Positions 14,397 through 61,659 of a DNA stretch of 64,000 bases are shown here, in pieces; positions within the stretch are counted from its first letter, which is position 1, and each line of letters begins with the position of its first letter. This DNA is from an uncultured bacterium (GTDB lineage Bacteria; Krumholzibacteriota; Krumholzibacteriia; Krumholzibacteriales; Krumholzibacteriaceae). The position numbers and the translations under genes were made by a program. The DNA lies in contig CAZREW010000006.1 of the NCBI GenBank assembly GCA_964599375.1, positions 28,285-92,284 of the forward strand, written 5' to 3'. The notes below the pieces were generated by a model. It had not been told where the DNA came from, did no database searches, and saw only the letters and a program-made list of their open reading frames with translations.

Positions 14397-15983
14397 TCAG
14401 CGCCGCCGCCGCGACAAGATGACCCACACGGCTGTCAGGCCGAGGTCAAGCGCTGCCATCCCGAGGAATATCTTCTGCCCGTACCTGGTGTAGGGAGTCA
14501 TCGACGACAAAGTATAGACCGGGACTAGAAGTATCCCCTCGGTGTCGAGTCCGATTGACTCGACAACCCGCCCGGCCGGGTCGATAAACATCGATACGCC
14601 CGTATTGGCGGCGCGCAACACCGTCACCCCGTTCTCGATCGCCCTCTCGATGGCCGACTCGCTGTGCTGCAGGGGCCCCCGTGCTCCGCCGAACCAGCCG
14701 TCGTTGGTGATGTTGACAAGAAAATCCGCCCCGAGCCTCACGTATTCGCGCGCGTAGCCGGAGAATGTCGACTCGAAGCATATAAGCGCGCCGAACTTCC
14801 CGACGGGGGATTCGAAGATCGTCTGGTGCTCTCCACGCTTGAAGTTCGCCTGGCCGAAATCCATACGTTCGAGGAACGGGAACCAGCCGCTGAAAGGCAC
14901 TCTCTCCCCGAACTGCAGGAGATTGATCTTGTCGTACTGCTGGACCAACTCGCCGTTCCGGCCGAACATGCCCGACGAATTGAACGAGCGCCAATTCTCG
15001 CCTTCCTTGATGTGCCTGACGTACCCGATGTAGACGTCGACCCCGGCATCTTCGGCGATGCTTTTCATCCATTCCCTGTACTTGCGGCTGTGGCTCATCG
15101 AAACGGGCGCCGCAGTCTCGGGGAATATCACCAGCTCTGCGCCGAGCGCGGCCGCCCTTCTGGTCAGTTCCTCTATCTCGCCGAATATCGTATCCCTGTA
15201 GACGGGCTGCCATTTCAGGGCAAGGTCGAGGTCGGGCTGGACGATCGCGACATCGGCCGGCCGGTCGACCGCCCCGATCTCCATATCGATCCGCTGGATC
15301 CTGAGATATCCTCCGGTGAGTGTGCCCGCGACCAGGAGTACAAGAAGCAGCGCCGCCTGCACTCTCCTGCTACGCTCCCTGATAAAAAGCGCAGAGGCGA
15401 TGAGCAGGTTCGCAGTGACTATCAGCATCCCGAACCCAAACGGCCCGGTTGCAAAGAGGCCCTGCGAAGCTATCGGGTACTTGATAAGCGTCCCCGAGAT
15501 GATCCCCCAGGAGAAAGCAAGCTCCCCGCTCGATCTCAGGTACTCCGCCAGGGCCCAGAATGCCGGTGCGGCCAGCAGCGCTTTCCTGCCTATGCGCCCG
15601 TGCAAGGCCGCCAGGGCAAGTGTAAAGAGCCCCGTGTAAAGGCCGAGATACATGACGAGCAGGATCAGTCCGGGGATCAGCACCCACCTGAGGCTGATGC
15701 TCGATGCGGGGATGAGGTTGGTGACCCAGAAGAGCAGCATGAGGAAGAACGCCATCCCGAACATCCACCCGGTCACAAAACCCCTCCGAAGGCGGCCCTT
15801 ATTCCCCTCGTATGAGGGAAAAACGACGAGGAAATACCGGAAGACGGGGACAAGCGCAACGAGGGAGAGCAGCCTTGTCGGATAAGGGGGAAAGGAAAGA
15901 GCCATCAGGAAGCCGCCGAGGACTCCCGCGAAGATCTCCTCCCGCCACCGCGTCAGGAACGACTGTGCTCCGGGACCTTTCAA
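14397..15983 (-). CDS. lnt: Apolipoprotein N-acyltransferase
   Basis: N-terminal multi-TM region plus C-terminal CN-hydrolase domain (ELVIFPETA, ICFEST). 528 aa. Confidence 0.85.
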   Translation of the reverse strand: MKGPGAQSFLTRWREEIFAGVLGGFLMALSFPPYPTRLLSLVALVPVFRYFLVVFPSYEGNKGRLRRGFVTGWMFGMAFFLMLLFWVTNLIPASSISLRWVLIPGLILLVMYLGLYTGLFTLALAALHGRIGRKALLAAPAFWALAEYLRSSGELAFSWGIISGTLIKYPIASQGLFATGPFGFGMLIVTANLLIASALFIRERSRRVQAALLLVLLVAGTLTGGYLRIQRIDMEIGAVDRPADVAIVQPDLDLALKWQPVYRDTIFGEIEELTRRAAALGAELVIFPETAAPVSMSHSRKYREWMKSIAEDAGVDVYIGYVRHIKEGENWRSFNSSGMFGRNGELVQQYDKINLLQFGERVPFSGWFPFLERMDFGQANFKRGEHQTIFESPVGKFGALICFESTFSGYAREYVRLGADFLVNITNDGWFGGARGPLQHSESAIERAIENGVTVLRAANTGVSMFIDPAGRVVESIGLDTEGILLVPVYTLSSMTPYTRYGQKIFLGMAALDLGLTAVWVILSRRRR

Positions 15984-17097: not shown

Positions 17098-19785
17098 ATG
17101 AAAAAGAACGTGTTCTCCGAATCACGCATCGTCCACAGGATCTTCCTCCTGCTCATCGTGTTCGCCGTCGCCGCCGCGGTACTCATCCCCGAGTCGTCGC
17201 CTTTCGCGAAGAACCCTTACAGGAGGGAGTTCTTCAGCCAGCACCCCGAGGCTGTAGGAACGGCGATAGACGACGTGCCGAGCAATCCGGGCCACTGCGG
17301 CGTATGCCACTTCGACTTCAGCGGATCGGCTGCACGGAATCCTTACGGCCTCTCGGTAGAGGTCGGGTTGAACAACGGACTGACGATAGCCCAGGCGATA
17401 GCCGCGGTTGAATATAATGACGCCGACGGCGATAATTACACAAATCACACTGAAGCGACCGATATCGCGGGATTCTCGAACACCTCGACATTCCCGGGCC
17501 TGAATATCAATAACTATACCCTGGCGGTCAACGTCGACCTCGCCGACATAGTCGGATATCTCACGCCGACCGGCGCAACCGACACGATCCCGCCTTCGGT
17601 GGCCGTGAACGACCCGATGGGCGGAGAGGTCCTCCAGGCCGGCACATACTATTCCGTACTGTACGACGCGAACGACAATACGGGCGTGGACCATGTGAAC
17701 ATCTACCTTTCCGACGACAGCGGCGCTGAATGGTTCAAGACTGTCGCGAAAAACGAGACTCCGGGCACGGGATTCTCCTGGTTCGTCCCGAACTTCCCCG
17801 GAGATTTCAACAGGATAAGGGTCGAGGCCGTAGACATCGCCGCCAATAAGGGCAGCGGCGAAAGCATGGGCGATTTCACGATACTATCCACACCCCCGGG
17901 CTACGTCCCCTCGTCGCTGAGGGACATGGAGCTCCCCGGCACACAGCCTCACGAAGGAGCCATCCTCGACGATCCCGACGTTTCGTGCGCGACCTGCCAC
18001 GGTAACTACGACTCGAACGCCGAACCTTGGTACAACTGGCGAGGCTCGATGATGGCACAGGCGCAGAGGGACCCCATCTTTCTCGCGTGCGTCACCGTAG
18101 CCGAGCAGGACGCGCCTTCCGTAGGAGACATCTGCATAAGGTGCCACTCCCCGGGCGGCTGGCAGGAGGGCCGCTCGATCGACACCAGCGGCGAGATGAT
18201 CAACTCCAAGGACAGGCACTCGGTCCAGTGCGATTTCTGCCACAGGGTGGTCGACTTTAACTACGTCGCCGGGGTGAGCCCGGCGGTCGACGCCGAGGTA
18301 CTCGCGGATATCGACCCGCTTCCGCTCGCTTTCGCGAACGGGCAGTTCATAAACGATCCTTCGCCGCTCAAGCGCGGCCCTTATGCCGACGCCGAAGCGA
18401 GCCACCAGTTCGTCGAGTCTCCGATCCACAGGTCGTCGGAGATGTGCGGCATTTGCCACGACGTGAGCAACCCGGTGTTTCTCCACGTATCGACGGCCGA
18501 TTACGTACCCAGCGACTTCGACGCGGAACATCCCGACATGGACCTCAGGAACATGTTCCCCATAGAGCGCACTTACAGCGAGTGGACTCAGAGCGAATAC
18601 GCGTCGACCGGCGTATACGCCCCTCAGTTCGCCGGGAACAAGGCGGACGGGATCGTCTCATCCTGCCAGGACTGCCACATGAGGGACGTCAATGGCAAAG
18701 GCGCCAACGCCATCGGAGTCAACGACAGGGCGGATCTCGGGCTGCATGATTTCACCGGCGGCAACACGTTCATGCCTTCGACTATTGCGGACAAGTTCCC
18801 CGACGAGGTCAGCCTCGCCCAGCTGCAGGATGCGGAGGCCCGTGCAAGATACATGCTCCAGAACGCGGCTTCAATGACGGTGACTCCCGAAGATTTCGGC
18901 ATAACGGTCAGGGTCACGAACGAGACTGCGCACAAGCTCCCTTCAGGATATCCTGAGGGCCGCAGGATCTGGCTCAACGTCGTCGCTCTCGACGCGGCCG
19001 GCACCCCGATCTACGAGTCGTGCGCCTACGACAACGAGACGGCCGATCTATCGCACGACTCGCAGGCGAAGATATACGAGATCAAACCGGGCCTGAGCCC
19101 CGGTCTGGCTGACGCCCTTGGCCTGCCGGCCGGCAAGTCGTTCCACTTCGTCCTGAACGACACCATTTACGCTGACAACAGGATCCCGCCGAGGGGGTTC
19201 ACGAACGCCGGGTTCGAAAGCATCCAGTCGCCGGCGGTCGCGCATATATACGAGGATGGCCAGTACTGGGACGACACCCCATACTTGCTCCCGGTCGAGT
19301 CCGACTCGGTCATAGTCACTCTCTACTACCAGACGACATCGAAGGAATACACGGAGTTCCTGCGTGACGAGAACGAGACCAACTCCTCCGGGCAGGATTT
19401 CTACGATTCTTGGGTGGCGCACGGAAAGTCGGCTCCGGAGATCATGGTCCGCGTAAGGGCCGCGGTCAATGTGACGGTGACCGACGACGAGGTCGCCGGA
19501 ACGCCGCTGATCTACAACCTCGAGCAGAACTTCCCCAACCCGTTCAATCCGGCGACAAGGATCGATTACTCGATCGCGGAAAAGGCTCATGTCTTCATCG
19601 CCGCCTACGACGTTGCAGGAAGGCGGGTCAGCGTGATCGTAGACGCCGAGCAGGAACCTTCGCGCTACTCGGTGACATGGAACGGCACCGGCGACGACGG
19701 ACGCGCTCTATCCTCGGGTATTTATTTCATAAGATACCGTGCGGGTGGGTACACGTTCACAAGGAAGGCGGTGCTTCTGAGATAA
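17098..19785 (+). CDS. Multiheme c-type cytochrome (six CxxCH) with C-terminal T9SS (Por) sorting domain
   Basis: Signal peptide. CxxCH at CGVCH, CATCH, CIRCH, CDFCH, CGICH, CQDCH. C-terminus QNFPNPFNPATRIDYSI...GIYFIRYRAGGYTFTRKAVLLR matches the T9SS type-A CTD. Confidence 0.8.
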   Translation: MKKNVFSESRIVHRIFLLLIVFAVAAAVLIPESSPFAKNPYRREFFSQHPEAVGTAIDDVPSNPGHCGVCHFDFSGSAARNPYGLSVEVGLNNGLTIAQAIAAVEYNDADGDNYTNHTEATDIAGFSNTSTFPGLNINNYTLAVNVDLADIVGYLTPTGATDTIPPSVAVNDPMGGEVLQAGTYYSVLYDANDNTGVDHVNIYLSDDSGAEWFKTVAKNETPGTGFSWFVPNFPGDFNRIRVEAVDIAANKGSGESMGDFTILSTPPGYVPSSLRDMELPGTQPHEGAILDDPDVSCATCHGNYDSNAEPWYNWRGSMMAQAQRDPIFLACVTVAEQDAPSVGDICIRCHSPGGWQEGRSIDTSGEMINSKDRHSVQCDFCHRVVDFNYVAGVSPAVDAEVLADIDPLPLAFANGQFINDPSPLKRGPYADAEASHQFVESPIHRSSEMCGICHDVSNPVFLHVSTADYVPSDFDAEHPDMDLRNMFPIERTYSEWTQSEYASTGVYAPQFAGNKADGIVSSCQDCHMRDVNGKGANAIGVNDRADLGLHDFTGGNTFMPSTIADKFPDEVSLAQLQDAEARARYMLQNAASMTVTPEDFGITVRVTNETAHKLPSGYPEGRRIWLNVVALDAAGTPIYESCAYDNETADLSHDSQAKIYEIKPGLSPGLADALGLPAGKSFHFVLNDTIYADNRIPPRGFTNAGFESIQSPAVAHIYEDGQYWDDTPYLLPVESDSVIVTLYYQTTSKEYTEFLRDENETNSSGQDFYDSWVAHGKSAPEIMVRVRAAVNVTVTDDEVAGTPLIYNLEQNFPNPFNPATRIDYSIAEKAHVFIAAYDVAGRRVSVIVDAEQEPSRYSVTWNGTGDDGRALSSGIYFIRYRAGGYTFTRKAVLLR

Positions 19786-21235
19786 CCGTCTTTACAGGAT
19801 CCCGATGCCGGTCGGGATCGATATTCATCCTCTTGAGCTTCTTGAGAAGGCCCTGGCGGGTTATCCCCAGGGCCTTCGCAGTGCGGGTTCTGTTTCCCCC
19901 GAAACCCTCCAGCGCATCCACGATCATCCTTCTCTCGAGCCGCATCACGGCCTCGGGCATCGTACCCGCTTCCAGACCGGAATCCGTTACGGGAAGGATG
20001 CTCCCGCGCCCTTCCGGGATCCCCAGCATCGAGGCGGTGATCCTCACGGAGCCCGGGTTCATCGTCAAAACCCTCTCGATCTCGTTTCTCAGCTCTCGGA
20101 CGTTGCCCGGCCAGCGATAGCCGATGAGCCTGGACAGGGCTCCAGCGGTCATCGAGACGGGACGGCCGCTGAGCTGGAGCGAAGACTCGCGAAGGAACCG
20201 CGCCGTCAGGACCGGGACATCCTCGCTCCTCTCCCTGAGCGGCGGGATATGCAGCCTGACAGCACTGAGCCTGAAGTAGAGGTCCTCCCTGAATCTCCCC
20301 GCCCGGACAAGCCCCTCGAGGTCGCGGTTAGTGGCGAACACAAACCGCACATCGACCTTTCTGCTCCGCCCTTCGCCGAGCCTGCGTATCTCTCTCTCCT
20401 GAAGCACACGGAGCAGCGCCGCCTGAAGATGGACGGGAAGCTCCCCGATCTCGTCGAGGAAGAACGTCCCGCCGCCGGCCGCCTCGATCAGCCCCTCGCG
20501 GTCGCGGTCGGCCCCTGTGTAGGCTCCCCTGGCGCTTCCGAACAGCTCGCCCTGGAGAAGGCCCGCCGGCATCTCGAGGCAGTTGACCGCTATGAACGGC
20601 CCGGCGCGCCTCGGCCCGAGCGAATGGATGTTCCTTGCGACAAGCTCCTTGCCCGTCCCGCTTTCCCCGCATATGAGGACATGGATCCTGCCGGCGGCGA
20701 CCTTCCGGATGTCCTCCCTGAGAGAGACGATCGAAGGGGATATCCCGGCGATCGGCGGATCGAAGGGGCGGCCCCCTCCGGCCGCCGCCCCACATCCGCC
20801 GTGACCGGGCGCCAGAACATCGGCCAGCGGGAGAAGATGCTCGAGAAGCCCGAGCAGCTCACCAGCGGCAGAGATCCTTCTCGGAAGGAAGGACGGCGTC
20901 ATCTCGTTGAGCTCGAGGTCGAGAGAGACGGACATGCCTGCGAGCCTGCGCTCGAGGCGCCACTCGTTCCCGTATCCGCTCCCGTCCATCCGCCACACGC
21001 CGAACCCCCCCGCGGTCGATGCCGATTCCCTCAGGGCAAGTTCGGCGCTCTGGTCGGCGGGTACTCCACCGCATATCTCCAGGCCCGGCCCTCCCGGACC
21101 GGGTTCTCCCAAATATAATCGCAGGCGGGCCGCCGAGGCGCCGCACGCGCTGCAGAGAAGCCCCAGGCATTCCTTTATCGCCTTCCTCACCAGGTACTCT
21201 CCCGTCTCTGCTTCTGGTCCCCGCCGACACTTCAC
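19757..21235 (-). CDS. Sigma-54-dependent transcriptional activator (EBP) with N-terminal sensory domain and Fis-type HTH
   Basis: GESGTGKE Walker A, GAYTGA variant of the GAFTGA loop, ESELFGxxxG-type region, RFREDLYFRL, C-terminal HTH. The true start is uncertain (GTG at 21235; internal ATGs possible). Confidence 0.8.
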   Translation of the reverse strand: MKCRRGPEAETGEYLVRKAIKECLGLLCSACGASAARLRLYLGEPGPGGPGLEICGGVPADQSAELALRESASTAGGFGVWRMDGSGYGNEWRLERRLAGMSVSLDLELNEMTPSFLPRRISAAGELLGLLEHLLPLADVLAPGHGGCGAAAGGGRPFDPPIAGISPSIVSLREDIRKVAAGRIHVLICGESGTGKELVARNIHSLGPRRAGPFIAVNCLEMPAGLLQGELFGSARGAYTGADRDREGLIEAAGGGTFFLDEIGELPVHLQAALLRVLQEREIRRLGEGRSRKVDVRFVFATNRDLEGLVRAGRFREDLYFRLSAVRLHIPPLRERSEDVPVLTARFLRESSLQLSGRPVSMTAGALSRLIGYRWPGNVRELRNEIERVLTMNPGSVRITASMLGIPEGRGSILPVTDSGLEAGTMPEAVMRLERRMIVDALEGFGGNRTRTAKALGITRQGLLKKLKRMNIDPDRHRDPVKTVISEAPPSL

Positions 21236-23467: not shown

Positions 23468-23504
23468 GACCCCGGGGCCTCCCGGCTCCGGGGTCTTCTT
23501 TTCT
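23468..23504 (+). terminator. Intrinsic terminator after the OPT transporter gene
   Basis: GACCCCGG...CCGGGGTC 8-bp stem followed by TTCTTTTCT. It overlaps the ORF-track ATG at 23466, so that start is rejected. Confidence 0.6.
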
Positions 23505-23982: not shown

Positions 23983-23997
23983 TGGCACCATAAATGC
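23983..23997 (+). promoter_or_regulatory. Candidate sigma-54 promoter (TGGCAC-N5-ATGC; GG-N10-GC)
   Basis: Perfect -24 TGGCAC and a -12 TGC at the correct spacing, ~57 nt upstream of ATG 24054. Confidence 0.5.
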
Positions 23998-24053
23998 CAT
24001 TATACTGGATATCTTGCACCTTTCTCGCGGTAGATTGCGGGAGTTGAAAAGAA

Positions 24054-25874
24054 ATGAAACAGTACACTTGGGTTATCCTGTTGACAATAATCCTCTTGCC
24101 GGCGTGTGGCCGCGACACAGCACCCGTGCTCGCGCCATCCTTCCCACCGCAGGAGATATCTGCGGACAGCATACTCGTTGCACAATGCGGGCTTCTGGAA
24201 CAGGCTGTTGAAGTGTTCGCGGCGGTCGGCGATGGGGAATATCCGGAAAATATAGACATCGACACGCTCGATACCGGCGAATCGGTCCTCGACCTGATGC
24301 CGGACGGCGGCGTCTATGTCAATCCGTACACGGACAAGGAAACTGTTCCCGTAAACGGACAGGCGACTGGTCCCGGTGCGATCGCCTACGCCCCGATAGT
24401 CGTCGAAGAAACGATATACGGATACATGATCACTGGATTCGGAGAAGAATCGATAGAAGTTCAGCTCTCCAACCTCGCCTCTCCGGAGGAAGCGCTGGTC
24501 CTGGCCAACTGCAGGACGGCAGTCGAGATGCTGCGCGAGCAGCTTGAGGAGATCCTCGCTAATCCATATTCTGGCGATTACTCCAATCTTTACCCTCTCG
24601 ACGAGAAGAGCTGGGACAGGATGACTATCCTAAGCTCCTGGACCAAATACTACGGTAACACGTCTGACAACCCGTTCACCGGAGACGAGGAGCTCATCCT
24701 GAGGACCGCCGACAGTCCGGGCGAGACCGGATACGTATGTATCATGTCCGAAGGAAGAATATACGGGTATGTAGTCACAGGTCACGGGAAGGATTCGGTC
24801 ATCTTCGCCGAATCGAGCTTCGACTGCACGATTGAGGAGGCCGTGGTCATATCCAACTGCAGGACTCTCGAGAAGGCACTGGAAAGATTCGCCTGGAGAA
24901 ACGCCGGCCTGTATCCCTCCGACATCTACAACGACAGGAACGCCGACGGGAAGAGAGTCTTCGACTATCTCCACTCTTCTGCAGGCCTTCTCAACCCCTA
25001 TACCGGCCTGAGAACAGAGCCCTCAGCCAATACATCAGGCATGCCCGGCCAGGTCAGCTACGAAGCGATGGAGTATTTCGGCCTGAGGATGGGGTACCGG
25101 ATCAGGGGATTCGGAGAAGAGTCCCAGGTGCTGGAGCTCACCAATATCGGGACGGTCGAGGAGGCCACAATACGGTACAACTGCTACACCCTTATGGAAG
25201 CGGTCGAAGAATTCGCCGCTGATAACGGAGGAGTGTATCCTGAGGACCTGTTCGCAGACGAGGACATGTCGGGCGAGACGGTCGAGGACCTTCTCCCCCG
25301 CGGCAGGGCCCCCCTTAATCCTTATACCGGGGGAGATGACGGCCTGGTGAACCATACGGCCGTAAGGCCCGGCCAGACAGGATATGCCAGGATGACTGGA
25401 AGGTACTCATCATGGAACTCCGCGAGCGGGACAGAGACAGACAACTACGATCCGGTCTACGTCATCTCGGGCTTTTCCACGCATGGTCACGAGTTCATCA
25501 TATCCAGCGGACGGACCACGCCGGTGGAAGCGATCGTGATCTCTCATTGCAGGACGGTGCAGCTCGCCGTCGAGGAATTCGCCAGCCGAAACGGCGGGAT
25601 ATACCCAGGTAATACCGGCTGTGACTCCAGCTGGTACGGTGACACCGTGATCGACTTCCTACCGGGCCGGGCGCTCCTGGAGAATCCGACCACTGGAGCG
25701 GCCACCGAGCCGGTCGACGGCGCGGCGGCGACTTCAGGCCAGGTTGGGTTCATACCCGTCTGCCTGAACGGCATGAATGTCGGATACGTGATAACGGGAA
25801 CGGCCGAGGTATGCGGCCTCACTACTTGTACGATCTTCTCGGCACCTGATTCCGATCCTTATAAAGTTCGTTGA
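24054..25874 (+). CDS. Lipoprotein composed of five tandem ~110-aa pseudopilin (GspG/pilin-like) globular-domain repeats
   Basis: Signal peptide plus lipobox LLPACG. Five repeats each carrying xNCRTxxxAVEEFAxxNGGxYP ... NPYTG ... GY(V/M)ITG. This resembles the T2SS G / type IV pilin core (LExALDxYxxDNGxYP ... DPWGNPY) but lacks the N-terminal hydrophobic pilin helix. Confidence 0.7.
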   Translation: MKQYTWVILLTIILLPACGRDTAPVLAPSFPPQEISADSILVAQCGLLEQAVEVFAAVGDGEYPENIDIDTLDTGESVLDLMPDGGVYVNPYTDKETVPVNGQATGPGAIAYAPIVVEETIYGYMITGFGEESIEVQLSNLASPEEALVLANCRTAVEMLREQLEEILANPYSGDYSNLYPLDEKSWDRMTILSSWTKYYGNTSDNPFTGDEELILRTADSPGETGYVCIMSEGRIYGYVVTGHGKDSVIFAESSFDCTIEEAVVISNCRTLEKALERFAWRNAGLYPSDIYNDRNADGKRVFDYLHSSAGLLNPYTGLRTEPSANTSGMPGQVSYEAMEYFGLRMGYRIRGFGEESQVLELTNIGTVEEATIRYNCYTLMEAVEEFAADNGGVYPEDLFADEDMSGETVEDLLPRGRAPLNPYTGGDDGLVNHTAVRPGQTGYARMTGRYSSWNSASGTETDNYDPVYVISGFSTHGHEFIISSGRTTPVEAIVISHCRTVQLAVEEFASRNGGIYPGNTGCDSSWYGDTVIDFLPGRALLENPTTGAATEPVDGAAATSGQVGFIPVCLNGMNVGYVITGTAEVCGLTTCTIFSAPDSDPYKVR

Positions 25875-25903
25875 CAGCGGACTATCGATAGGGATGACAT
25901 GAA

Positions 25904-25940
25904 GAGAGGACCGGCCGATGCCGGTCCTCTCTTTCATTTC
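25904..25940 (+). terminator. Intrinsic terminator after the repeat lipoprotein gene
   Basis: GAGGACCGGC-CGAT-GCCGGTCCTC stem followed by TCTTTCATTTC. Confidence 0.55.
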
Positions 25941-26245: not shown

Positions 26246-26770
26246 CTACGGTCCGAGGACCTCGTATCCACTGACCTCTACAGCATCACCATCGCCCATT
26301 ATCCCCCAGATCCAGGCGCGATGGCCGCCGAAAGCCTCCAATGCCGCTGTCAGAGGCCCTGTCAGCATATACCCGATGTCTTCGGAATTCAACAGGATCG
26401 TTTCGCCGGATATCGAGATCCTTCCCATCACCACGACCATCCCTTCCGGGGGGACCAGTAAATAGCTTTCGACCCTGGCATCTCTCTCGCCACCCCTTCC
26501 CGGGACACCGGAGCAGGTAAGCACAACATCATATCCGTCGAGAAGGCTCAACTCTGCCTCCATCCCCCCGGGGTCGAGGTTCCACTTCACGCCCTGCGGA
26601 TCGGAGAGGACGATCACCCTGTCGAAAGGATGGTCGCCCTCGACCCTGATGGAGCCTTTTAGCTGAAACCGTTCTCCCGATGAAGTGGCGGGTGGAGTGG
26701 AGGCGCATGAGACCGTCGCCAGTAGGATCAGAGCTATCAGAATATCACTGGATCCTGATAAGAGCCGCAT
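26246..26770 (-). CDS. Hypothetical lipoprotein
   Basis: Signal peptide with lipobox ATVSCAS. No recognisable domain. Confidence 0.5.
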   Translation of the reverse strand: MRLLSGSSDILIALILLATVSCASTPPATSSGERFQLKGSIRVEGDHPFDRVIVLSDPQGVKWNLDPGGMEAELSLLDGYDVVLTCSGVPGRGGERDARVESYLLVPPEGMVVVMGRISISGETILLNSEDIGYMLTGPLTAALEAFGGHRAWIWGIMGDGDAVEVSGYEVLGP

Positions 26771-28658
26771 TCATACTCCCGAACAACGCGCTTGAGATAT
26801 TGATATCGTAGACATCGGTACCAGTGAATTCCATGATCAGGAAATCCGGACCGTACGACTTCACATCACCCGTATAGGGACTCCCGCAGATGTTGCTCTG
26901 CCTGATCCTGAGCGGGCCGAAATCGGCCGCGAGATCCAGCGATGTATATGAGTATTTCGGATCGACAGGCGTCACGCCCATGTCCTCGAAATACATAGTA
27001 GCCGCCCAGTCGGTAAAGAGCTCCTTGAAAGCGAAGCCGGTCACATACTCGATATTATCCGTGCCTGTCTTATTCGTCTGCACTATGTCGCGGAATATTC
27101 GATCGCCGAAACGGTCCCCGAGGTACCTGAAGAAGAGGAAACTTGCACCCCTCTCCTCGAGGTCGTCGCCTCCGTGGATCAGGGTGACATTGCCGGGATC
27201 GTTGAGGAAAAGGTTCGCCCGGCTGATATTGCTCCCATCGTGGCCGTTGAGGTCCTCGGCTATGTGAGCGAGCCCCTCGTCTACCCATAGCTCCGCCATA
27301 TACGCGCCGCTGTATCCGTTCCCGAAGATCAGCACCCGGTAGTTGAACATGATCATGTGTTCGAATTCGTGAGCGATCACGCCCACGATCACATCGAGAG
27401 CCTCGTCCTTGGGATGCACGTTCCCGTATAAACCGGTAGGATCGGGGACCATCGAATAGTATATCTCCATCCCGTTCGAAGCGCCTGTCGGAACGTATGC
27501 GGGCAACAGATCGCCCGGCATGAAGAAACCGGCTATATAGCCGGGAGTAGACCCGCCGGAAGGCGTCAGCTCGTTGACTACCGGCGTCAGCAGGATGACG
27601 ACTTTCCCGTCATGGTTGATGTCTGACTCTGACCCGAAACTCGAAGTATTGGTCGGATAGATATGATCCTCGAACTCCTGCCCCAGCGCCGCCGCCTCGT
27701 AATCGGTGATGCAGGAAACGTGCGTAGTCTGGTCGACGTAAAGAAGCGTATGCGTCCCCTCGTATTTAAGGTCAGCTGTCACTAGGGTAAAATCGGCAGG
27801 ATTGATAGTGCTGCCGTCGAAATTGCTGAAAACGAAGAACTCCTGCGCCTGCGGCTTAAGCATCGAAGACCGAGAGGGCGCAGGTTTCGTATAACCTTCA
27901 TCGATACCGGACTGCCCGCCGTGAAGAAGGCCGAGAGCTTCCTCCCACTTCTTCCGCTCGAACGATCTTGTGACCTCTCCGGACCCGGCAAGCAGAAGGG
28001 GGTCGAGCTTTATTGCGTCAGGACCGGCGTCAATTGCAGTATCAGGCCCGTCTGCTGGGGGGGCCGACGTGCAGGGTGTATTGTTGTCTACGGAATAGTT
28101 GACTGTCATATTCCTGTCGGGCGGCGTGGCGCTGTCGAACAGTATGAGGATGTATTCCTCGCCGGCCTGCAACGTCGAAAGAGAAAAATCATAATCCGAA
28201 TCGGCATAATAGATCTTCGCCACATCGCCACGGAGCAGCCTGATCGTGAAATCGAGCGAGTTCGAAGGGATCCTCGGCGGCGTGATATCAAAGGGTCCAC
28301 CGTAGACCGGGAATGGAGCCTCCACTCTGACTCCGCCGGTGAACGAGCCTTCAGGGACCTCTACCGTCAGGCTCGTGCGCGTCACCTCCGAGGGAACGGC
28401 GGTCCTGTTCGCGACGGAGCTTGAAAAGCCTGTAGCGGAAAATGTGACCAGATTCTGCGCGGGCTCTGCGCTGAAACCTTTCCCTTCGATCGTCACTACA
28501 TCCCCGGCGCTTGCCTGAGCCGGCGTTACCGAACTGATGGATATCTGCTCTCCGCCGCTCTGTGGATCATCACTGCAGCCTGACAGGCCGAACGCCGCGA
28601 CCACGAGCAGCAGGGAGTATACTGTGATTCCAGGGGATTTTGTTCCCAGATAACGCAT
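26745..28658 (-). CDS. Lipoprotein with N-terminal IPT/TIG-like domain and HExxH zinc-metalloprotease domain
   Basis: Start MRYLGTKSPGITVYSLLLVVAAFGLSGCSDD (lipobox LSGC; GAGGTAG RBS). ISISSVTPAQASAGDVVTIEGKGF is an IPT-like segment. VIAHEFEHMIMFN (HExxH) and GLAHIAE follow. Confidence 0.65.
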   Translation of the reverse strand: MRYLGTKSPGITVYSLLLVVAAFGLSGCSDDPQSGGEQISISSVTPAQASAGDVVTIEGKGFSAEPAQNLVTFSATGFSSSVANRTAVPSEVTRTSLTVEVPEGSFTGGVRVEAPFPVYGGPFDITPPRIPSNSLDFTIRLLRGDVAKIYYADSDYDFSLSTLQAGEEYILILFDSATPPDRNMTVNYSVDNNTPCTSAPPADGPDTAIDAGPDAIKLDPLLLAGSGEVTRSFERKKWEEALGLLHGGQSGIDEGYTKPAPSRSSMLKPQAQEFFVFSNFDGSTINPADFTLVTADLKYEGTHTLLYVDQTTHVSCITDYEAAALGQEFEDHIYPTNTSSFGSESDINHDGKVVILLTPVVNELTPSGGSTPGYIAGFFMPGDLLPAYVPTGASNGMEIYYSMVPDPTGLYGNVHPKDEALDVIVGVIAHEFEHMIMFNYRVLIFGNGYSGAYMAELWVDEGLAHIAEDLNGHDGSNISRANLFLNDPGNVTLIHGGDDLEERGASFLFFRYLGDRFGDRIFRDIVQTNKTGTDNIEYVTGFAFKELFTDWAATMYFEDMGVTPVDPKYSYTSLDLAADFGPLRIRQSNICGSPYTGDVKSYGPDFLIMEFTGTDVYDINISSALFGSMNAALIRIQ

Positions 28659-28813
28659 TTTATCTACCTCGGGCCGAGGACTTGCCGTGCGTGGCCGCGC
28701 GGATTGTGACGCCCCGCAGGGCCAGCAGATACAACTGTTCAGGAAGATAACAGTTTCGACCCGCCCTTTCAATCCCGACGGAAGCGCCCGCATGGCCAGA
28801 TTCTACGTAATAA

Positions 28814-28882: not shown

Positions 28883-30346
28883 ATGATATCACTTGAACTC
28901 GACATAATATGCTCTGACTCCGATGTCCTGGGGACCACAGCAACAGACTGCGCTGAATCAGGATGGGAAGTGTCGAAGTTCTCCAGCGTGAGCGATTTCG
29001 TATCGAAAAGAGAGAAATCGGCCCCGCCCGCACTTATATTTGCCGGATCGGAAGTCGCCGGAAACAAGGACATCACTCCGGACGTCAAGACTCTGATAAG
29101 CTGGCACGGCCGGAATCCCGCCACCCAGCTTATCCTGCTGATACCGGAGGGCCTGAAAAACGAGGACAATGTCGCGCTGAGCCTGGGTGCGCGGCACCAG
29201 CTTCACATGCCATACGAGAGACGGGGCCTTCATCTTATCCTCAGCCAGATCGCCAGTGGCCTGGGTAAGCGCAAGCTTGATGAGGCCATCCGGGAAAGAG
29301 TGGCTAAACCGGAAGGGTTCGATGACATCATTGGCGTCAGCGATGCAATGCAGGAAATAATCGCCCTGGCGATCAAGGTCGGAAAAAGCGACTGCACATC
29401 GGTCATGATCACCGGCGAGAATGGCACCGGCAAGGGAGCCCTCGCTGGAGCCATCCATCAGATAAGTGCCAGGTCCTCCGGGCCGCTCATAGAGGTCAAC
29501 TGCGCGGCGATCCCTGCCAAGCTGCTTGAAAGCGAGTTCTTCGGCTACGAGAAGGGTGCTTTTACCGATGCCAAGGAAAGAAAGATGGGGCTGTTCGAGG
29601 TCGCCAACGGGGGGTCTATATTTCTCGATGAGGTCGGTGAGATCGACTTCAACCTCCAGGCAAAGCTCCTCAAGTTCCTCGATTCGAGGACTATAAGGAG
29701 GGTCAGCGGCACCCAGTTCCTGCCCGTAGACGTCAGAGTGATCTCAGCTACAAACAGAGACCTGAAGGCTGACGTTGAACTCAAGCGGTTCCGGGCCGAC
29801 CTCTATTACAGGCTCAACGTCGTGGAAATAAGGATCCCTCCGCTTCGAAACCGCAGGGAGGATATCCGCCCCATCGCCGAGACGTACACGAAAAAGTTCT
29901 CCAGCCGCCTGAAGAAGGGGGGTGTCACCCTCTCGAAAGACGCTTTCTCGCTTCTCGAGCGATACTCATGGCCTGGTAACATCAGGGAGCTGATAAATCT
30001 CATCGAGCGCGCAGTCCTCCTCAACACGACCGGGACCATTCATGCTTCCGACCTGCCGATCGACACGGAGACCCGCATTGAGGAAACAACCTGCCATGTC
30101 AAGAAAGAGAACGGAACCCTGAAGATCGATATTCCACCCGAAGGAGTCAGCCTCGAGCAGGTTGAAAAGGCAGTGATCGTAGGGACCCTGCTCAGGACTG
30201 AGGGTAATATCACCCGCGCGGCCCACCTTCTTGGGGTAGAACGGGGAACGCTGAGATACAAGATGAAGAAACACGGAATAGACGCTCACGAGCTTAAGGA
30301 AAAAATCAAAACCGGCGAATATGAGCCGGCTTGTATAACAAACTGA
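28883..30346 (+). CDS. Sigma-54-dependent activator (EBP) with atypical receiver-like N-terminus; GAFTDA loop variant
   Basis: GENGTGKGA P-loop, GAFTDA in place of GAFTGA, RFRADLYYRL, C-terminal HTH (ITRAAHLLGVERGTLRYKMKK). Confidence 0.75.
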   Translation: MISLELDIICSDSDVLGTTATDCAESGWEVSKFSSVSDFVSKREKSAPPALIFAGSEVAGNKDITPDVKTLISWHGRNPATQLILLIPEGLKNEDNVALSLGARHQLHMPYERRGLHLILSQIASGLGKRKLDEAIRERVAKPEGFDDIIGVSDAMQEIIALAIKVGKSDCTSVMITGENGTGKGALAGAIHQISARSSGPLIEVNCAAIPAKLLESEFFGYEKGAFTDAKERKMGLFEVANGGSIFLDEVGEIDFNLQAKLLKFLDSRTIRRVSGTQFLPVDVRVISATNRDLKADVELKRFRADLYYRLNVVEIRIPPLRNRREDIRPIAETYTKKFSSRLKKGGVTLSKDAFSLLERYSWPGNIRELINLIERAVLLNTTGTIHASDLPIDTETRIEETTCHVKKENGTLKIDIPPEGVSLEQVEKAVIVGTLLRTEGNITRAAHLLGVERGTLRYKMKKHGIDAHELKEKIKTGEYEPACITN

Positions 30347-30618: not shown

Positions 30619-30633
30619 TGGCACCCGCGTTGC
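30619..30633 (+). promoter_or_regulatory. Sigma-54 promoter (TGGCAC-CCGCG-TTGC), consensus match
   Basis: Perfect -24 and -12 elements with N5 spacing, 62 nt upstream of ATG 30695. Confidence 0.65.
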
Positions 30634-30694
30634 CTTATACCGGTGCAGAGATCGAAAGTAGTTTTTAACCAAAGACCCCAAGGAGGTGGGAGAA

Positions 30695-31246
30695 ATGTCA
30701 GGACGAACCATAGCCCACAAATTCCTCACCGTTTCAACCTTCCTCAGTGTACTGGCTGCCATGGGTTGTGGATCCTACTCTCCTGTAACCCCCTCACAGG
30801 ATGACACTACGCCCGGTGTTGAGTTCCCCGTTTTCGTCCAGGTTCTCACCACCTCCGCGGGATCTTCTGGTCGAGATATGATGCAGACCACCTCAACCTC
30901 CGTCTCCATGGTGATTTCAGCTGAACTGGGCGGGACTGTGACAAACGGCTACGTCAGTTTGTACTTCCCGCCCGGTGCCCTCGATGTGGACACCGAGATA
31001 ACCATGGACATGCCCATGTACCCTCAGGCAATGGTTGAGCTGGGCCCCCACGGCATAGAGTTCAACAAAGCCGTGATCATGACCCTGCCCCTGGACAAGC
31101 TCGACTCAGACGCGACATCCTACAGGACGCTCTGGAACAATGAGATCGAAGGGATATGGGTAGACATAGGTGGACACGTCGAAAACGGCAACATAGTCTC
31201 GAAACTCGAGCACTTCAGTGATTATGGATATTTAGATCAGGGTTGA
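30695..31246 (+). CDS. Hypothetical lipoprotein (sigma-54-dependent by promoter)
   Basis: GGAGGTGG RBS before ATG 30695. Lipobox AAMGCGS. Confidence 0.6.
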   Translation: MSGRTIAHKFLTVSTFLSVLAAMGCGSYSPVTPSQDDTTPGVEFPVFVQVLTTSAGSSGRDMMQTTSTSVSMVISAELGGTVTNGYVSLYFPPGALDVDTEITMDMPMYPQAMVELGPHGIEFNKAVIMTLPLDKLDSDATSYRTLWNNEIEGIWVDIGGHVENGNIVSKLEHFSDYGYLDQG

Positions 31247-31300: not shown

Positions 31301-31337
31301 ATTGATTTTCTCAAAGTACTTCTTAAAATCCCATTCC

Positions 31338-34300
31338 ATGGTTGAGAAGTATGGATTTCCTTTAAGGTACAGCAAGTTATCGACACTGGGTTCTGGTGGA
31401 ATCGGAACGGTTTTCAAAGCTTTCGACTCCCAACTTGACAAAGAAATCGCCATAAAGATTCTGAATAATCTAGATCGCGATCTATCAGCTTCTTTAGAGA
31501 ACGAATTCTCCACGCTGATCTCGCTGAACCATCCCAATTTGATAAAGGTATATGATTTCGGTCAGAGTGATTCAGGGCATTCATACTTCACTATGGATTT
31601 AATTCATGGGCAAAATTTAAATGATTATTTCTCATCTTCTTTGAAAGTCAGTTCTACCACTGATATTCTCGTGGGCATTCTTGATGCCCTTAGCTATTTG
31701 TCAAAAAGAAACATAATACACGGAGATATCAAACCTGAGAACATACTCATTCCTGATGGAAACGATTCACACCCAGTGCTTGTAGATTTTGGGCTTGCTC
31801 TTATTGCAGATTCAAATCAAGACAAAGTGTTCGGGACACCAAGATTTCTTGCTCCGGAGATCCTGTTATCAAAACAGTATTCCTCAAAAAGCGATCTTTA
31901 TGCTCTTGGACACACATTTATAGAAAGCTTAACAAAGCACAAGACAGTACTTGCTCATGAGTTGACTGATAGTTATCTAAGCGATGCATATGAATCTCTA
32001 TGTTACCTCTTCGAAGAGAGGGACATTGAATATCCGAGGAATCTAGCTTCATTCATTGTCAGTCTCTCCAATCCATCTCTTTCTTTACGTCCAGACACTA
32101 TTTCACAAGCTATTCTTAAACTATCGACAATTTCTACGCCTTCATGCGAAGCAAACACAATTCTTAACCCTGAATACGTTGCTCGAGAAGAAATCGACAA
32201 TTCTATTGAAATATTTATAGATAAGAACAGTTTTGACAATAGATCTCTTTTACTTGAAGGCCCTATTGGTACCGGAAAGAGAACACTGATGGGAAGAGCT
32301 ATCAGTAAAGCTCAGTTATTGAAATTCAAGGTTTTAATGTATAGCGATATTCCTGAAGAAAGATTCTCTCTAAATGTTTTTATAGATTCGCTCTCAATGA
32401 ATCTGCCTGCTCCGCTGAGTAATAATTTGTTTGAACAACACAACCGACTTTTAAATAGCATCAAGAAGGCTGAAGCAACTCCAGACCTTGATAACCTGGG
32501 AGTAATTTATAGCAATATCATTGAACATATTTCGCTCCTTTCAAAGGAACAGCCGGTATTAATCGTTATTCCAAACATCGAAAGTCATGGAACTGATACC
32601 TTAAGATTTATCAAGCACTTAGTAGACGAAATAGACTATCTCGGCGCGAAGGCAAAGATTCTCTTATCTCATTCAACAGATCACATTCGTGACAACACTT
32701 TTTACGAACAACTAAGTTCGCTTAAACACAATCTATCTCTCCTACATATTCGAGGATTTAGTGCATCAGAAATAAAACAGTACTGTCACAATATTTTTGG
32801 ATGCGATTTGTTTACAAATGGAGAAATCAATTCCTTTTTGTCTATCACAAATGGGAATCCTCAATATCTTTTCGACTACTTAAACTACCTGATAATGAAC
32901 GGAATCATTACTAAGAATGAGCGAACATATTATGCGGACCATAAACAAATAAATAGGACATATTCTCTGACTAGAAATGATGTAATCGTTGATAGTATAA
33001 TTTCTCATTTACTCCCTGATGAATTGCATTTCCTTCAATTACTTTCTATTTATGATTATCCAATTGACATCACTCATATGAAATTTTTTATCTCCTATGA
33101 TCTGCCAACTATAATCGATACTTGTGAAATTGCATCATTAATAGAAACGCACAACGGCATAATATGTTTGAAGTCCCCAGCCTTTAAATATCACCTCAAT
33201 AATAATATTAATGATTCTTTACAAATATCGCTTAATCGAATCCTTGCTGATTATTCAGTTAAAGCTAACCCAAATAACTACGCATTAATAGCAAATCATT
33301 ATATCAAGGCGCATGCAATAGATGAGGCCTATGAATACGCAACCAGAGCATATGAAAAGCACCTTGCGCAACATGAGTATTATTCAGCCTATAATCTATT
33401 TGTTTCTCTTAGTAATTTGATTGAAGACATTAATAGTACAGAGATCAAAATTGATATATTGGAAAAATTGAGTTCTCTGGAGTTCACACTGGGGTATTCA
33501 GACGATTCTCTAAATAACTATTTAAAGCTAATAGATATATCTACTGACCAAATTTCTATTGCTAGGTATTACAACAAAATCGGGCGTATAGAGCGCTACT
33601 TCAGAGGAAATACGAATAAGGCAGTCGAATATTTTAATCGTGCTCTTGACATAGCCAAAAAGAATGCAGCAACTGAAGTTGAAGCCGAGGCATTGCTGTC
33701 TCTTGGACTCGCATTACAAAATGCTTCGTTTGTGGAAGCATCAGCCGATCTTTCTAAAGGAATTCTTTTAAATCAATATGTTCGTGCTTTAGGAATAGCT
33801 ATGCAATTGTACACTTTTTCAGGGAATTCAGAGAAATGCCAAACAATTGAGGTAGAACTTGATAGGTACCTCTCAACCGATGATCCAACTATTCTTTCAT
33901 ATATATACGATGCAAAATACCTATACTCATTCTATACAGGTGTCTATTCGGTAGCTGACACCATGCTTCGAAACCTTATCGATCTTGCAAAACGCTCATT
34001 TAATGAAACGGCGCGCATCCGACACCTGAATGCTCTGGGAAGCATATATTACTCTCAAGGCAAATTTAGGCTCCAAATCGATACATTAAGGAATGCTTAT
34101 CATCTTGTTAATAAATATCAATTCCCCCTGCATAGAATACTGACTCTTTCCAACATGGCATTAGCCCATGTTGCACTTGCAGAATATTCAATAGCCATTC
34201 GGTTGATTATCGAAGTTAGATCATACGCAGAAAAGCATAAGTTGTCTAATATACCAACTTACCATTATTCTATTGGAGCTGGAGCATTCATGCCACTCGG

Positions 34301-34934
34301 CAAACTACAAAACGTTAATTTTCATAGATATCTAGAGTTGCTCAAGGAAACAGCGGAAAAGTCCAAAAATATTATCAGCCTTGGCCACATGGATCTTAAA
34401 TATGGAGACTATTACTACTTTGCAGATCAGTCCAATGATTCGAAGAAACATTATTTAAAGTCAATCGACATTTTTCGAACCACGAACGCCAAAGACGACA
34501 TGCTGGAGGCTTTGCTGAAGCTTTCGCTTGTGCACAGGAACATTAACGATCACAAAATGGCGCATGACTATGCGAGGCAAGCGGCGAAGATATTCAGGGA
34601 GATTAATTGCGGGTATCTGAAGCCGCTGTACAGCTATGTCATGGCGTTGAACGAGTGCCACGATGATCCCGAGTCCCTGGCCCCGATGCTGGAGGCGATA
34701 AACGTCTCCAGGGCATTCGGGACCAGGGAGTGGACATGGCAGATCCAGTTTCACCTGGCGCGGCTGTACAGAGAGGCTGGCGACATCTCCAATTCAGTGA
34801 AATACTGCAGGGAATCGATCAACACCCTCAAGGAGATAACCGAATCGTTCGACGATCCGGACCAGACATCCTCCTACCTGCAGGTGCCGCTCAGGCGTCA
34901 GGTCTTCGATTTCGTGAAGTCCTTGAGATCCTGA
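31338..34934 (+). CDS. Hanks-type Ser/Thr protein kinase fused to STAND/AAA-like NTPase and TPR repeats (PknK-like architecture); AT-rich, mosaic GC
   Basis: Kinase motifs GSGGIGTVF, IAIKIL, HGDIKPEN (non-RD), DFGLA, GTPRFLAPE. P-loop LLEGPIGTGKRT. Long TPR-like C-terminus. The first ~3.15 kb is AT-rich and the last ~450 nt are GC-rich. ATG 31338 preferred over TTG 31302, which overlaps the upstream terminator. Confidence 0.8.
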   Translation: MVEKYGFPLRYSKLSTLGSGGIGTVFKAFDSQLDKEIAIKILNNLDRDLSASLENEFSTLISLNHPNLIKVYDFGQSDSGHSYFTMDLIHGQNLNDYFSSSLKVSSTTDILVGILDALSYLSKRNIIHGDIKPENILIPDGNDSHPVLVDFGLALIADSNQDKVFGTPRFLAPEILLSKQYSSKSDLYALGHTFIESLTKHKTVLAHELTDSYLSDAYESLCYLFEERDIEYPRNLASFIVSLSNPSLSLRPDTISQAILKLSTISTPSCEANTILNPEYVAREEIDNSIEIFIDKNSFDNRSLLLEGPIGTGKRTLMGRAISKAQLLKFKVLMYSDIPEERFSLNVFIDSLSMNLPAPLSNNLFEQHNRLLNSIKKAEATPDLDNLGVIYSNIIEHISLLSKEQPVLIVIPNIESHGTDTLRFIKHLVDEIDYLGAKAKILLSHSTDHIRDNTFYEQLSSLKHNLSLLHIRGFSASEIKQYCHNIFGCDLFTNGEINSFLSITNGNPQYLFDYLNYLIMNGIITKNERTYYADHKQINRTYSLTRNDVIVDSIISHLLPDELHFLQLLSIYDYPIDITHMKFFISYDLPTIIDTCEIASLIETHNGIICLKSPAFKYHLNNNINDSLQISLNRILADYSVKANPNNYALIANHYIKAHAIDEAYEYATRAYEKHLAQHEYYSAYNLFVSLSNLIEDINSTEIKIDILEKLSSLEFTLGYSDDSLNNYLKLIDISTDQISIARYYNKIGRIERYFRGNTNKAVEYFNRALDIAKKNAATEVEAEALLSLGLALQNASFVEASADLSKGILLNQYVRALGIAMQLYTFSGNSEKCQTIEVELDRYLSTDDPTILSYIYDAKYLYSFYTGVYSVADTMLRNLIDLAKRSFNETARIRHLNALGSIYYSQGKFRLQIDTLRNAYHLVNKYQFPLHRILTLSNMALAHVALAEYSIAIRLIIEVRSYAEKHKLSNIPTYHYSIGAGAFMPLGKLQNVNFHRYLELLKETAEKSKNIISLGHMDLKYGDYYYFADQSNDSKKHYLKSIDIFRTTNAKDDMLEALLKLSLVHRNINDHKMAHDYARQAAKIFREINCGYLKPLYSYVMALNECHDDPESLAPMLEAINVSRAFGTREWTWQIQFHLARLYREAGDISNSVKYCRESINTLKEITESFDDPDQTSSYLQVPLRRQVFDFVKSLRS

Positions 34935-39752: not shown

Positions 39753-39767
39753 TGGCACGCACCTTGC
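39753..39767 (+). promoter_or_regulatory. Sigma-54 promoter (TGGCAC-GCACC-TTGC), consensus match
   Basis: Perfect -24/-12 elements with N5 spacing, inside a ~500-nt AT-rich leader, ~130 nt upstream of ATG 39899. Confidence 0.6.
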
Positions 39768-42082: not shown

Positions 42083-43093
42083 TCAGCAGTCCTTCTTCTC
42101 CCGTAACACTATGCCGTGCCTGCGCATACGATACAGGAGAGTCGTCCTCTTCAGGCCGAGGATCGACGCCGCCCTGCTGTGGTTCGACCCAGCCCTCCTG
42201 AGGGCGCCCAGTATCTCCTCCCTCTCAAACCTGCGGAGCTTTCCGTCGAGCCCTGTCTGGTCCCCGGGCGTGGGATCGAGGAGACCGGACACTATCCCTG
42301 CCGGGAGATCCGTCATCTCGAGCCTGCCCGAACACTTTCTCAGGGCCGCCGCGACTACCTCGTTCTGAAGCTGCCTGACATTGCCCGGCCAATCGAACGA
42401 CTCGAGGGCAAGCTGTGCCGCGGGCGAGACCGTCAGCGGCCCTATCGAGTATTCAGAGACCAGGCGTGATATGAAATGAGAGGAGAGAGGCATTATGTCG
42501 GCTTTGCGCTCACGCAGCGGGGGAATCCGGAAAACGACCGCGGACAGCCTGTAATACAGGTCGTCCCTGAAGGAACCCAGCTCTATTTCAGCTGGCAGGT
42601 CGCGGTTTGTGGCCGCGACGACCCTCGCGCCAGATCTTCTCGCGACACTCTCGCCTACAGGCATATACTCCCCTGAATCGAGGAATCTCAGGAGTCTTGC
42701 CTGGGCCCCGGGATCCGCTTCACCGATCTCATCGAGAAACAGCGTACCTCTGTCGGCTGCGGCGGCGAGGCCGGACTGATGCCTCACGGCGCCGGTGAAC
42801 GCTCCCTTGACATGACCGAAAAGGAAACTCTCGAACAGGTCTCCACGGAGAGTGGAAGCATTAACGGGGATAAAAGGGGATCTCGCCCTGCCGCTCCATC
42901 TGTGGATAAGCCTGGCAACGACTTCCTTGCCCGTGCCGGACTCTCCCGTTATAAGGACCGGCACCGGAAACGGGGATATCCTGCGGATCTCATCGAGGAG
43001 TCCCTTCATGGCTGGATCAGCTGTGATGAAGGCTGGCGATTTTTCCTTCTGCATATCGGTCGGTCCGCCCAGCCGGATGCCCGCATCCGACAC
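42083..43093 (-). CDS. Sigma-54 activator lacking a sensory domain (AAA+ plus HTH only; PspF/HrpS-like)
   Basis: GESGTGKE, canonical GAFTGA, FRDDLYYRL, C-terminal HTH. Only ~25 residues precede the AAA+ core. GTG at 43093 has GGGGGAG 7 nt upstream; ATG 43054 is an alternative. Confidence 0.8.
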   Translation of the reverse strand: MSDAGIRLGGPTDMQKEKSPAFITADPAMKGLLDEIRRISPFPVPVLITGESGTGKEVVARLIHRWSGRARSPFIPVNASTLRGDLFESFLFGHVKGAFTGAVRHQSGLAAAADRGTLFLDEIGEADPGAQARLLRFLDSGEYMPVGESVARRSGARVVAATNRDLPAEIELGSFRDDLYYRLSAVVFRIPPLRERKADIMPLSSHFISRLVSEYSIGPLTVSPAAQLALESFDWPGNVRQLQNEVVAAALRKCSGRLEMTDLPAGIVSGLLDPTPGDQTGLDGKLRRFEREEILGALRRAGSNHSRAASILGLKRTTLLYRMRRHGIVLREKKDC

Positions 43094-59699: not shown

Positions 59700-59791
59700 C
59701 GTACCGACTGACAAAGCAGATTGTGTCCTAAAATGAATGTACACTGTAAAAGATGATTAAGAGGCCCGGGGAACAGAGGTAAGTATCGGCT

Positions 59792-60049: not shown

Positions 60050-60095
60050 CCGCATCTCAGGGCGATCATCCTTAAATAAGAGCGTTCGTGGGATA

Positions 60096-61640: not shown

Positions 61641-61659
61641 AAGGAAGAGAGGGCCGCGG

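Follow-up and report, generated by a model that had tools for sequence, protein, structure and literature searches.

In a 64,000-nucleotide stretch of DNA from an uncultured bacterium of the Krumholzibacteriota (assembly GCA_964599375.1, contig CAZREW010000006.1; hereafter the window), we identified a gene encoding a predicted lipoprotein that carries five tandem domains homologous to the head of the type IV pilin PilA. Judged from its sequence, each domain corresponds to a major pilin minus the leader peptide and approximately the first 29 residues of the mature protein, the segment alpha1-N. The gene is real and conserved, and it belongs to a sizeable family that has so far gone uncharacterised. 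The anatomy of the five-head lipoprotein is secure; the function put forward below is a proposal.

Few bacterial surface proteins have been studied as much as type IV pilins and, to our knowledge, all that is known of them presumes a hydrophobic N-terminal helix, processing by prepilin peptidase and a dedicated assembly machine. Krumholzibacteriota are treated as a phylum of the Fibrobacterota-Chlorobiota-Bacteroidota (FCB) group. The new element is a family, comprising at least 524 sequence clusters and missing from Pfam and NCBIfam, whose members carry only the head of the pilin, multiplied on a lipoprotein scaffold, giving a new architecture for the pilin superfamily in poorly known FCB-group phyla and suggesting that the pilin head has a function apart from the filament, for example in binding or recognition. 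The first-pass annotation of this DNA had called such an architecture undescribed, and our searches of the literature, Pfam, NCBIfam and PADLOC likewise turned up no account of a lipoprotein composed of pilin heads in tandem.

Repeats, fold and relationship to PilA

The protein is laid out as follows (window coordinates, strand, and amino acid (aa) positions; pLDDT, predicted local distance difference test; profile, the profile of the repeats):

24054 to 25874 (+): coding sequence of the five-head lipoprotein, 606 aa, stop codon included
24054 to 24107 (+): signal peptide with lipobox L-P-A-C and predicted lipidation at Cys18, a residue invariant in 16 orthologues
24108 to 24152 (+): Pro-rich flexible tether, aa 19-33, opening with G-R-D, which resembles a lipoprotein export signal; pLDDT below 50 at aa 16-33
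24153 to 24473 (+): pilin-head repeat 1, aa 34-140; profile E 3e-37; helix 37-58 plus strands in the model
24474 to 24821 (+): pilin-head repeat 2, aa 141-256; profile E 1.5e-26; variable insertion at aa ~170-205
24822 to 25145 (+): pilin-head repeat 3, aa 257-364; used for the single-domain model
25146 to 25511 (+): pilin-head repeat 4, aa 365-486; profile E 2e-34; added beta-hairpin, with strands at aa 450-464 in the model
25512 to 25871 (+): pilin-head repeat 5, aa 487-606; the repeat closest to genuine PilA, with 55% identity across 105 aa (residues 38-142 of the PilA protein P0238)

This layout agrees with the first-pass annotation, which had described a 606-aa product with a lipobox followed by five repeats: the open reading frame (ORF) at 24054-25874 has its lipobox cysteine at position 18, and all five repeats match the profile, with E-values between 1e-26 and 1e-40. 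Pairwise identity among the repeats is 25-39%, repeat 2 being the most diverged. The motifs quoted in that annotation (NCRT, AVEEFA, NPYTG and GY(V/I)ITG) are consensus motifs, exact in repeats 3-5; they are degenerate in repeat 1 (AQCG..., NPYTD) and also in repeat 2, which has NPFTG and a long insertion. Only 4-5 residues connect the C-terminal strand (...ELTN) of a head with the alpha1-C helix (IES.EEA...) of the head that follows. The repeat profile detected no further copies of the domain in the window.

The decisive evidence for the identity of the repeats is their sequence homology to PilA. Twenty-two prepilins, comprising 20 PilA proteins and the family members P0161 and P0164, match the repeat profile over residues ~35-141 with E-values of 1e-31 to 1e-42. 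In addition to the 55% identity of repeat 5, repeats 1, 3 and 4 are 35-42% identical to PilA and repeat 2 ~32%. The related PilA proteins (for example P0250, Candidatus Latescibacter-like, CP070677) have 142-145 aa and a GFTLIEL N-terminus; the window repeats correspond to their residues ~36-142, and the head is homologous over its whole length. Shared motifs are SNC(H/R)T..AVE(D/E)F..NxGxYP in alpha1-C, an NPFT loop and a GY.ITG strand. From these profile matches, and from alignments that start only at PilA precursor residue ~35-38, we therefore equate each repeat with a pilin head without alpha1-N, as the first-pass annotation had stated for the N-terminal hydrophobic helix. When P0164 was used as query, more than 7,000 matches were obtained; the best 120 listed are prepilins of 136-217 aa (most 142-147 aa) with 55-65% identity, named in their sources as 'type IV pilus assembly protein PilA' or 'prepilin-type N-terminal cleavage/methylation domain-containing protein'.

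PilA itself differs in having a class III signal peptide, Glu5, a hydrophobic alpha1-N and a single head. The 606-aa protein has neither a class III signal (G/(F,M)xxxE) nor a hydrophobic alpha1-N of ~25 residues, and contains no match to PF07963, TIGR02532 or a regular expression for the prepilin motif, whereas PF07963/TIGR02532 do match the prepilin relatives P0161, P0164 and P0230. The earlier comparison had also included pseudopilins of type II secretion systems (T2SS). The pilin-head likeness was confirmed, and the closest relative of the repeats is PilA, not the pseudopilin GspG: neither PF08334 nor TIGR01710 (both GspG) matched the whole protein or any repeat, even at E<=10, PilA is nearer in sequence, and the window contains no T2SS genes. 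The Pfam comparison of single repeats proposed at that stage, against PF08334 and PF07596 (DUF1559), returned nothing, and PF07596 did not match the whole protein either. Overall, searches with the whole protein and each repeat against Pfam and NCBIfam at E<=10 gave no relevant match, and a profile of 76 repeats produced only noise against all PDB sequences.

An AlphaFold2 model of repeat 3, calculated from an alignment of 76 repeats, reached a pLDDT of 91.9 and a predicted template modelling score (pTM) of 0.85. In it, an N-terminal helix of 22 residues is followed by a loop that contains a short helix and by a sheet of four strands. This prediction, one of the checks suggested by the first-pass annotation, yielded a pilin-head fold, and in the models the repeats show the alpha1-C helix packed on an antiparallel beta-sheet that is typical of the globular head, with amphipathic helices of 22-26 residues. 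Foldseek returned EpsG as the top match to the repeat model, with E-values that were not significant. The full-length model (pLDDT 78, pTM 0.71) contains five helix-plus-sheet modules, and confidence is low only in the tether (aa 16-33), the insertion of repeat 2 (aa 173-203) and the C-terminal tail. Because a pTM of 0.71 is high for five domains, the model suggests that the five heads are held in a fixed arrangement.

Family, selection and sigma-54 promoter

A protein search yielded 16 colinear five-repeat homologues of 548-610 aa with 37-67% identity, and a genome scan with the full-length alignment added five loci from metagenome-assembled genomes, three of them labelled Candidatus Krumholzibacteriota or Krumholzibacteriia. 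Selection was measured on pairs among the loci L008, L009 and L010, comparisons of the window with its orthologues being saturated (dS > 1.4). For these pairs dN/dS was 0.26-0.33 overall and 0.14-0.48 per repeat, indicating that all five repeats are kept by selection; the test for purifying selection across repeats, also suggested earlier, thus gave values below 1 in each.

The repeat profile was searched against 1.84 billion cluster representatives and retrieved 524 proteins at E<=1e-3, a number that is a lower bound for the family, with 1-6 domain copies per protein. Among the best 164 members, 121 carry a lipoprotein-type signal, recognised by [GASC]C after a hydrophobic stretch, most often with two heads; 19 are fragments, 22 were classed as 'other' and two, P0161 and P0164, have true prepilin N-termini by motif test, with PF07963 above its cut-off. 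P0159, with a degenerate prepilin N-terminus, is counted among the 22. In locus L017 (1-2138), a truncated pilin-head gene is followed after 9 nt by a second one, which encodes the five-head protein P0027, so gene duplication is a further way in which the family grows. A role of the helix cysteine as a catalytic, metal-binding or disulfide residue was considered and set aside: its position is occupied by Ser or Ala in some family members and in repeat 3 of some orthologues.

The regulatory features of the gene are:

23983 to 23997 (+): sigma-54 -24/-12 element TGGCACCATAAATGC (GG-N10-GC), 56 nt 5' of the ATG
24010 to 24020 (+): conserved TATCTTGCACC, in the region of the predicted transcript start or 5' leader, ~13 nt 3' of the -12 element
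24039 to 24043 (+): ribosome-binding site GGGAG, 10 nt before the ATG, read from the sequence
25903 to 25939 (no strand assigned): hairpin with a 13-bp perfect stem (AGAGAGGACCGGC-CGAT-GCCGGTCCTCTCT) followed by TTCATTT; read from the sequence, its inner part also found in a terminator scan

A -24/-12 element about 57 nt upstream of the gene had been noted in the first pass and was found 1 nt closer, at the position given above. Three matches to TGGCAC-N5-WTGC lie in the window, where chance would give 0.14. Corresponding elements were found in the orthologous loci:

Window: CTGGCACCATAAATGC
L001: CTGGCACCGGATATGC
L007: GTGGAACGGGAAATGC
L006: TTGGCTTAATAAATGC
L003: TTGGCTCAGTTTATGC
L008: CAGGCCCGCTCTATGC
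L009: TTGGCCTGCTCTATGC
L010: CTGGCCCGCTTTATGC
L011: CAGGCACTGTTTATGC
L018, a two-head family member from another lineage (-44): GTGGCACGGGATATGC

In nine orthologous loci, the upstream regions of which cannot otherwise be aligned, the GG-N10-GC element lies 65-97 nt 5' of the start codon. In the more specific form GG[C/A]-N6-[A/T]ATGC, it is found at -44 to -97 in all ten family loci examined (the nine orthologous loci and L018), and only 20 matches occur in 312 kb of searched positions, both strands counted, ten of them being the promoter sites (background ~3e-5 per position). Because the element is kept in 10/10 loci and is rare elsewhere, we regard this pattern as strong evidence for sigma-54 dependence of the gene. 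The comparison also supplies a footprinted sigma-54 promoter consensus, TGGC-N7-(A/T)ATGC, for Krumholzibacteriota. Downstream of the element, TATCTTGCACC is identical in L001 and similar in L007 (ATCATGCACC) and L003 (TTCATGCATC), and could be a transcript-start mark or a leader element.

The upstream gene, which encodes a PqqD-like protein, ends 65 nt before the promoter, and the gene 3' of the hairpin converges on it, the hairpin being a predicted terminator between convergent genes. With its own promoter, a terminator hairpin and a convergent neighbour, the gene therefore forms its own, monocistronic transcription unit. Five sigma-54 activator genes had been reported within 20 kb, and all were located: 19757-21235 (-), 28883-30346 (+), 36504-38996 (-), 39899-41548 (+) and 42083-43093 (-). 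The gene at 28883-30346, encoding an enhancer-binding protein (EBP), is syntenic in L001 and L007. No upstream activator-binding site conserved among the loci was identified.

The other two perfect sites in the window, both TGGCAC-N5-TTGC, are at 30619-30633 (+) and 39753-39767 (+). The former precedes a 186-aa ORF (30686-31246) that is itself 5' of a Ser/Thr kinase gene, and the latter precedes the gene for the GAF-domain sigma-54 activator at 39899-41548, which may be autoregulated.

A sigma-54 -24/-12 promoter is also found upstream of the related pilA, where a TTGGCAT-N5-TTGCCA element lies 92-94 nt 5' of the gene. On two long contigs, related pilA genes sit inside a canonical type IVa pilus cluster with the order pilB, pilT, pilC, pilS, pilR, pilA, ABC transporter, pilD, pilM, pilN, pilO, a gene for a 155-156-aa protein, and pilQ, in which pilR encodes a sigma-54 activator. 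Whereas this pilA thus adjoins pilS/pilR and the pilus machine, the five-head gene is an orphan. The ABC-transporter gene set between pilA and pilD (L014, 7559-10030; L015, 7557-10010) recalls the pilGHI arrangement of Myxococcus.

Membrane anchor, location and possible function

The N-terminus reads MKQYTWVILLTIILLPAC18GRD, with a single basic residue, a hydrophobic stretch and L-P-A-C. The lipobox is MKQYTWVILLTIILLPAC; its +1 Cys is invariant in the 16 orthologues, and its Pro at -2, a position where orthologues carry S, L, G or C, is atypical. Lipidation is predicted at Cys18. An Lnt (apolipoprotein N-acyltransferase) homologue is encoded at 14397-15983 (-), and the organism therefore probably makes triacylated lipoproteins. 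Immediately after the cysteine, the window protein has C-G-R-D-T and orthologues have C-G-R-D-E, C-S-R-E-E or C-G-R-D-D, with Arg20 invariant in all 16. Across the 121 lipoprotein-type family representatives, acidic residues are enriched at +3/+4, and 79 have D/E at +4.

The lipoprotein export signal for surface exposure in Bacteroidetes is K-(D/E)2 or Q-A-(D/E)2 after the lipid-bearing Cys (PMC5080379). Bacteroidota surface lipoproteins resemble the five-head proteins in having a basic-acidic motif after the lipobox Cys (C-x-R-D/E-D/E in orthologues) and in belonging to an FCB-group phylum; they differ in that the signal is established in Bacteroidetes only, C-G-R-D-T being a weak version of it, and in that the passenger domains of the window protein have no relation to Sus-like proteins. 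For the location of the protein we favour surface exposure, since the residues after the cysteine are acidic across the family, as in K-(D/E)2, and since an FCB-group phylum is concerned whose window also encodes a protein with a type IX secretion system (T9SS) sorting tail. It is favoured further because the gene evolves fast relative to its neighbours (60% identity to L001, against 71-93% for the neighbouring proteins), and because head number varies from 1 to 6 and adjoining paralogues occur. Variable domain number and adjoining paralogues are typical of surface adhesins.

We propose that the gene, transcribed from its own sigma-54 promoter like the related pilA and ending at the hairpin terminator, would yield a mature protein of five tandem PilA heads, each with an alpha1-C helix and an antiparallel beta-sheet. 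Without a class III signal peptide, Glu5 and alpha1-N, it would be neither processed by prepilin peptidase nor polymerised by a pilus machine. Instead, the lipobox Cys and the short Pro-rich tether would anchor a pre-joined rod of five heads to the membrane, so that pilin-head surfaces are displayed on the outer face of the envelope without pilus machinery and act, under activator control, as an adhesin or ligand-binding rod. We place somewhat more belief than doubt in this proposal. Several points weigh against it. Lipidation, surface exposure and a binding function are all deduced, and the rod-like shape is suggested only by connector length and pTM. The C-G-R-D-T motif has one acidic residue and is a weak match to an export signal that is known from Bacteroidetes only. 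The window contains no type IV pilus genes. No partner gene recurs throughout the family, and the context therefore yields no hint of function.

Two known proteins are partial precedents for this arrangement. Clostridioides difficile PilJ (4ixj), which has two pilin-like domains, keeps its prepilin N-terminus and is incorporated into pili, differs from the window protein in having two domains rather than five and in not being a lipoprotein. The other is Geobacter PilA-C (GSU1497), a pilin-head-like beta-sheet protein without alpha1-N that is separate from the short PilA-N and for which a role on the pilus system has been proposed (PMC6201914). Although PilA-C lacks alpha1-N like the window repeats, it is a single head, encoded in an operon straight after pilA-N and described as working with PilA-N. 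The window protein has five heads, a lipid anchor and no adjoining pilin gene; the gene upstream is PqqD-like, with a promoter in between, and the Geobacter-type split arrangement, a head gene directly 3' of a truncated pilin gene, is absent.

The PilA-C precedent for a head encoded without alpha1-N (PMC6201914), the close homology of the heads to the major pilin and the sigma-54 control common to the gene and related pilA would also fit a periplasm-facing protein whose target is the type IV pilus system itself, for example a chaperone, buffer or regulator that binds PilA heads or alignment-complex proteins. We consider such a role unlikely, though worth keeping in view: no pilin or pilus gene adjoins the five-head gene in 12 orthologue loci (L001-L012), five rigidly joined heads and a copy number that varies from 1 to 6 are unexpected for a stoichiometric chaperone, and the acidic motif after the cysteine suggests an outward location over periplasmic retention. 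A surface mimic of the pilus is an improbable alternative. It would offer the same head surfaces without the retraction machinery, either drawing off, as a decoy, phages or predators that bind pili or giving neighbouring cells a place to dock their pili in adhesion or kin recognition, and rapid divergence and variable copy number would suit it. This idea is purely inferential, however; no PADLOC defence-system model matches the protein or its neighbours, and the per-repeat dN/dS of 0.14-0.48 is purifying, not diversifying. In a broader form, which we rate as a fairly long shot, these proteins would be an undescribed and widespread envelope class, a covalent, machinery-independent 'pilus stub' on the cell surface that combines the PilA head, stripped of its polymerisation helix, a lipid anchor, 1-6 copies and pilA-like sigma-54 logic, and that might serve as a docking partner for neighbours' pili or as a phage decoy.

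The pilin-like fold and sequence of the heads might suggest a true pilin or pseudopilin, major or minor, that prepilin peptidase would cleave and a type IV pilus or T2SS machine would assemble. The rest of the sequence contradicts this: unlike true prepilins of the family, it lacks the G-F-T-L-I-E motif and any PF07963/TIGR02532 match, it has a lipobox signal with an invariant Cys, and alpha1-N is absent from all five heads. We reject this reading as hardly credible. Even closer to nil is the probability that the repeats have an unrelated fold, such as a lectin or SCP domain, or that the ORF is a chance or assembly artefact. The lack of Pfam, NCBIfam and PDB-sequence matches and the non-significant Foldseek E-values might be cited in its favour, but it is refuted by the pilin-like head fold, the PilA homology and the purifying selection (dN/dS 0.26-0.33). 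As for the favoured adhesin or ligand-binding rod, the five-head protein offers a natural soluble-head construct with which to find ligands of these PilA heads.

Genomic neighbourhood

The gene order around the five-head gene is OPT transporter, PqqD-like protein, five-head protein, YgaP-like protein, 174-aa lipoprotein, TIG/HExxH protein and EBP. It is retained in the close relatives L001, L002 and L007 (46-60% identity), with the YgaP-like gene absent from L007. None of the neighbours from the OPT transporter to the EBP is retained in orthologue loci with ~40% identity, and an operon or system with these neighbours was rejected on that ground. No protein with an N_methyl domain is encoded in the window.

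A strong GC-rich hairpin with a T-run lies at 23468-23495 (+), directly 3' of the OPT transporter gene, and overlaps the start listed for the PqqD-like ORF (23466). This ORF probably begins at the ATG at 23526 instead, which fits its orthologues of 131-132 aa. On the other side of the five-head gene, 26246-28793 (-) encodes the 174-aa lipoprotein paired with the TIG-domain protein, which has HExxH at residue 475 and a likely start at Met46, leading to a lipobox LSGC followed by SDD. The pair is syntenic in L001 and L007 and may constitute a surface metalloprotease module.

Further away, 17098-19785 (+) encodes an 895-aa protein with six CxxCH motifs that is conserved in L001. Its matches to MtrC/MtrF domain II/IV, cytochrome c7, an FlgD Ig-like domain and a T9SS C-terminal sorting domain are weak and fall below the cut-offs. 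The protein resembles a multihaem cytochrome secreted through the type IX system. The Ser/Thr protein kinase at 31302-34934 (+), a 1210-aa protein with TPR repeats, is syntenic in L001, and its gene forms a sharp compositional island of 38.5% GC, where the window as a whole has 57.5% and the genes around it have 56-63%. Finally, at 58734-62649 (+), a gene for an AMP-binding (acyl-adenylate-forming) enzyme is flanked by two paralogous NAD-synthase-like genes.

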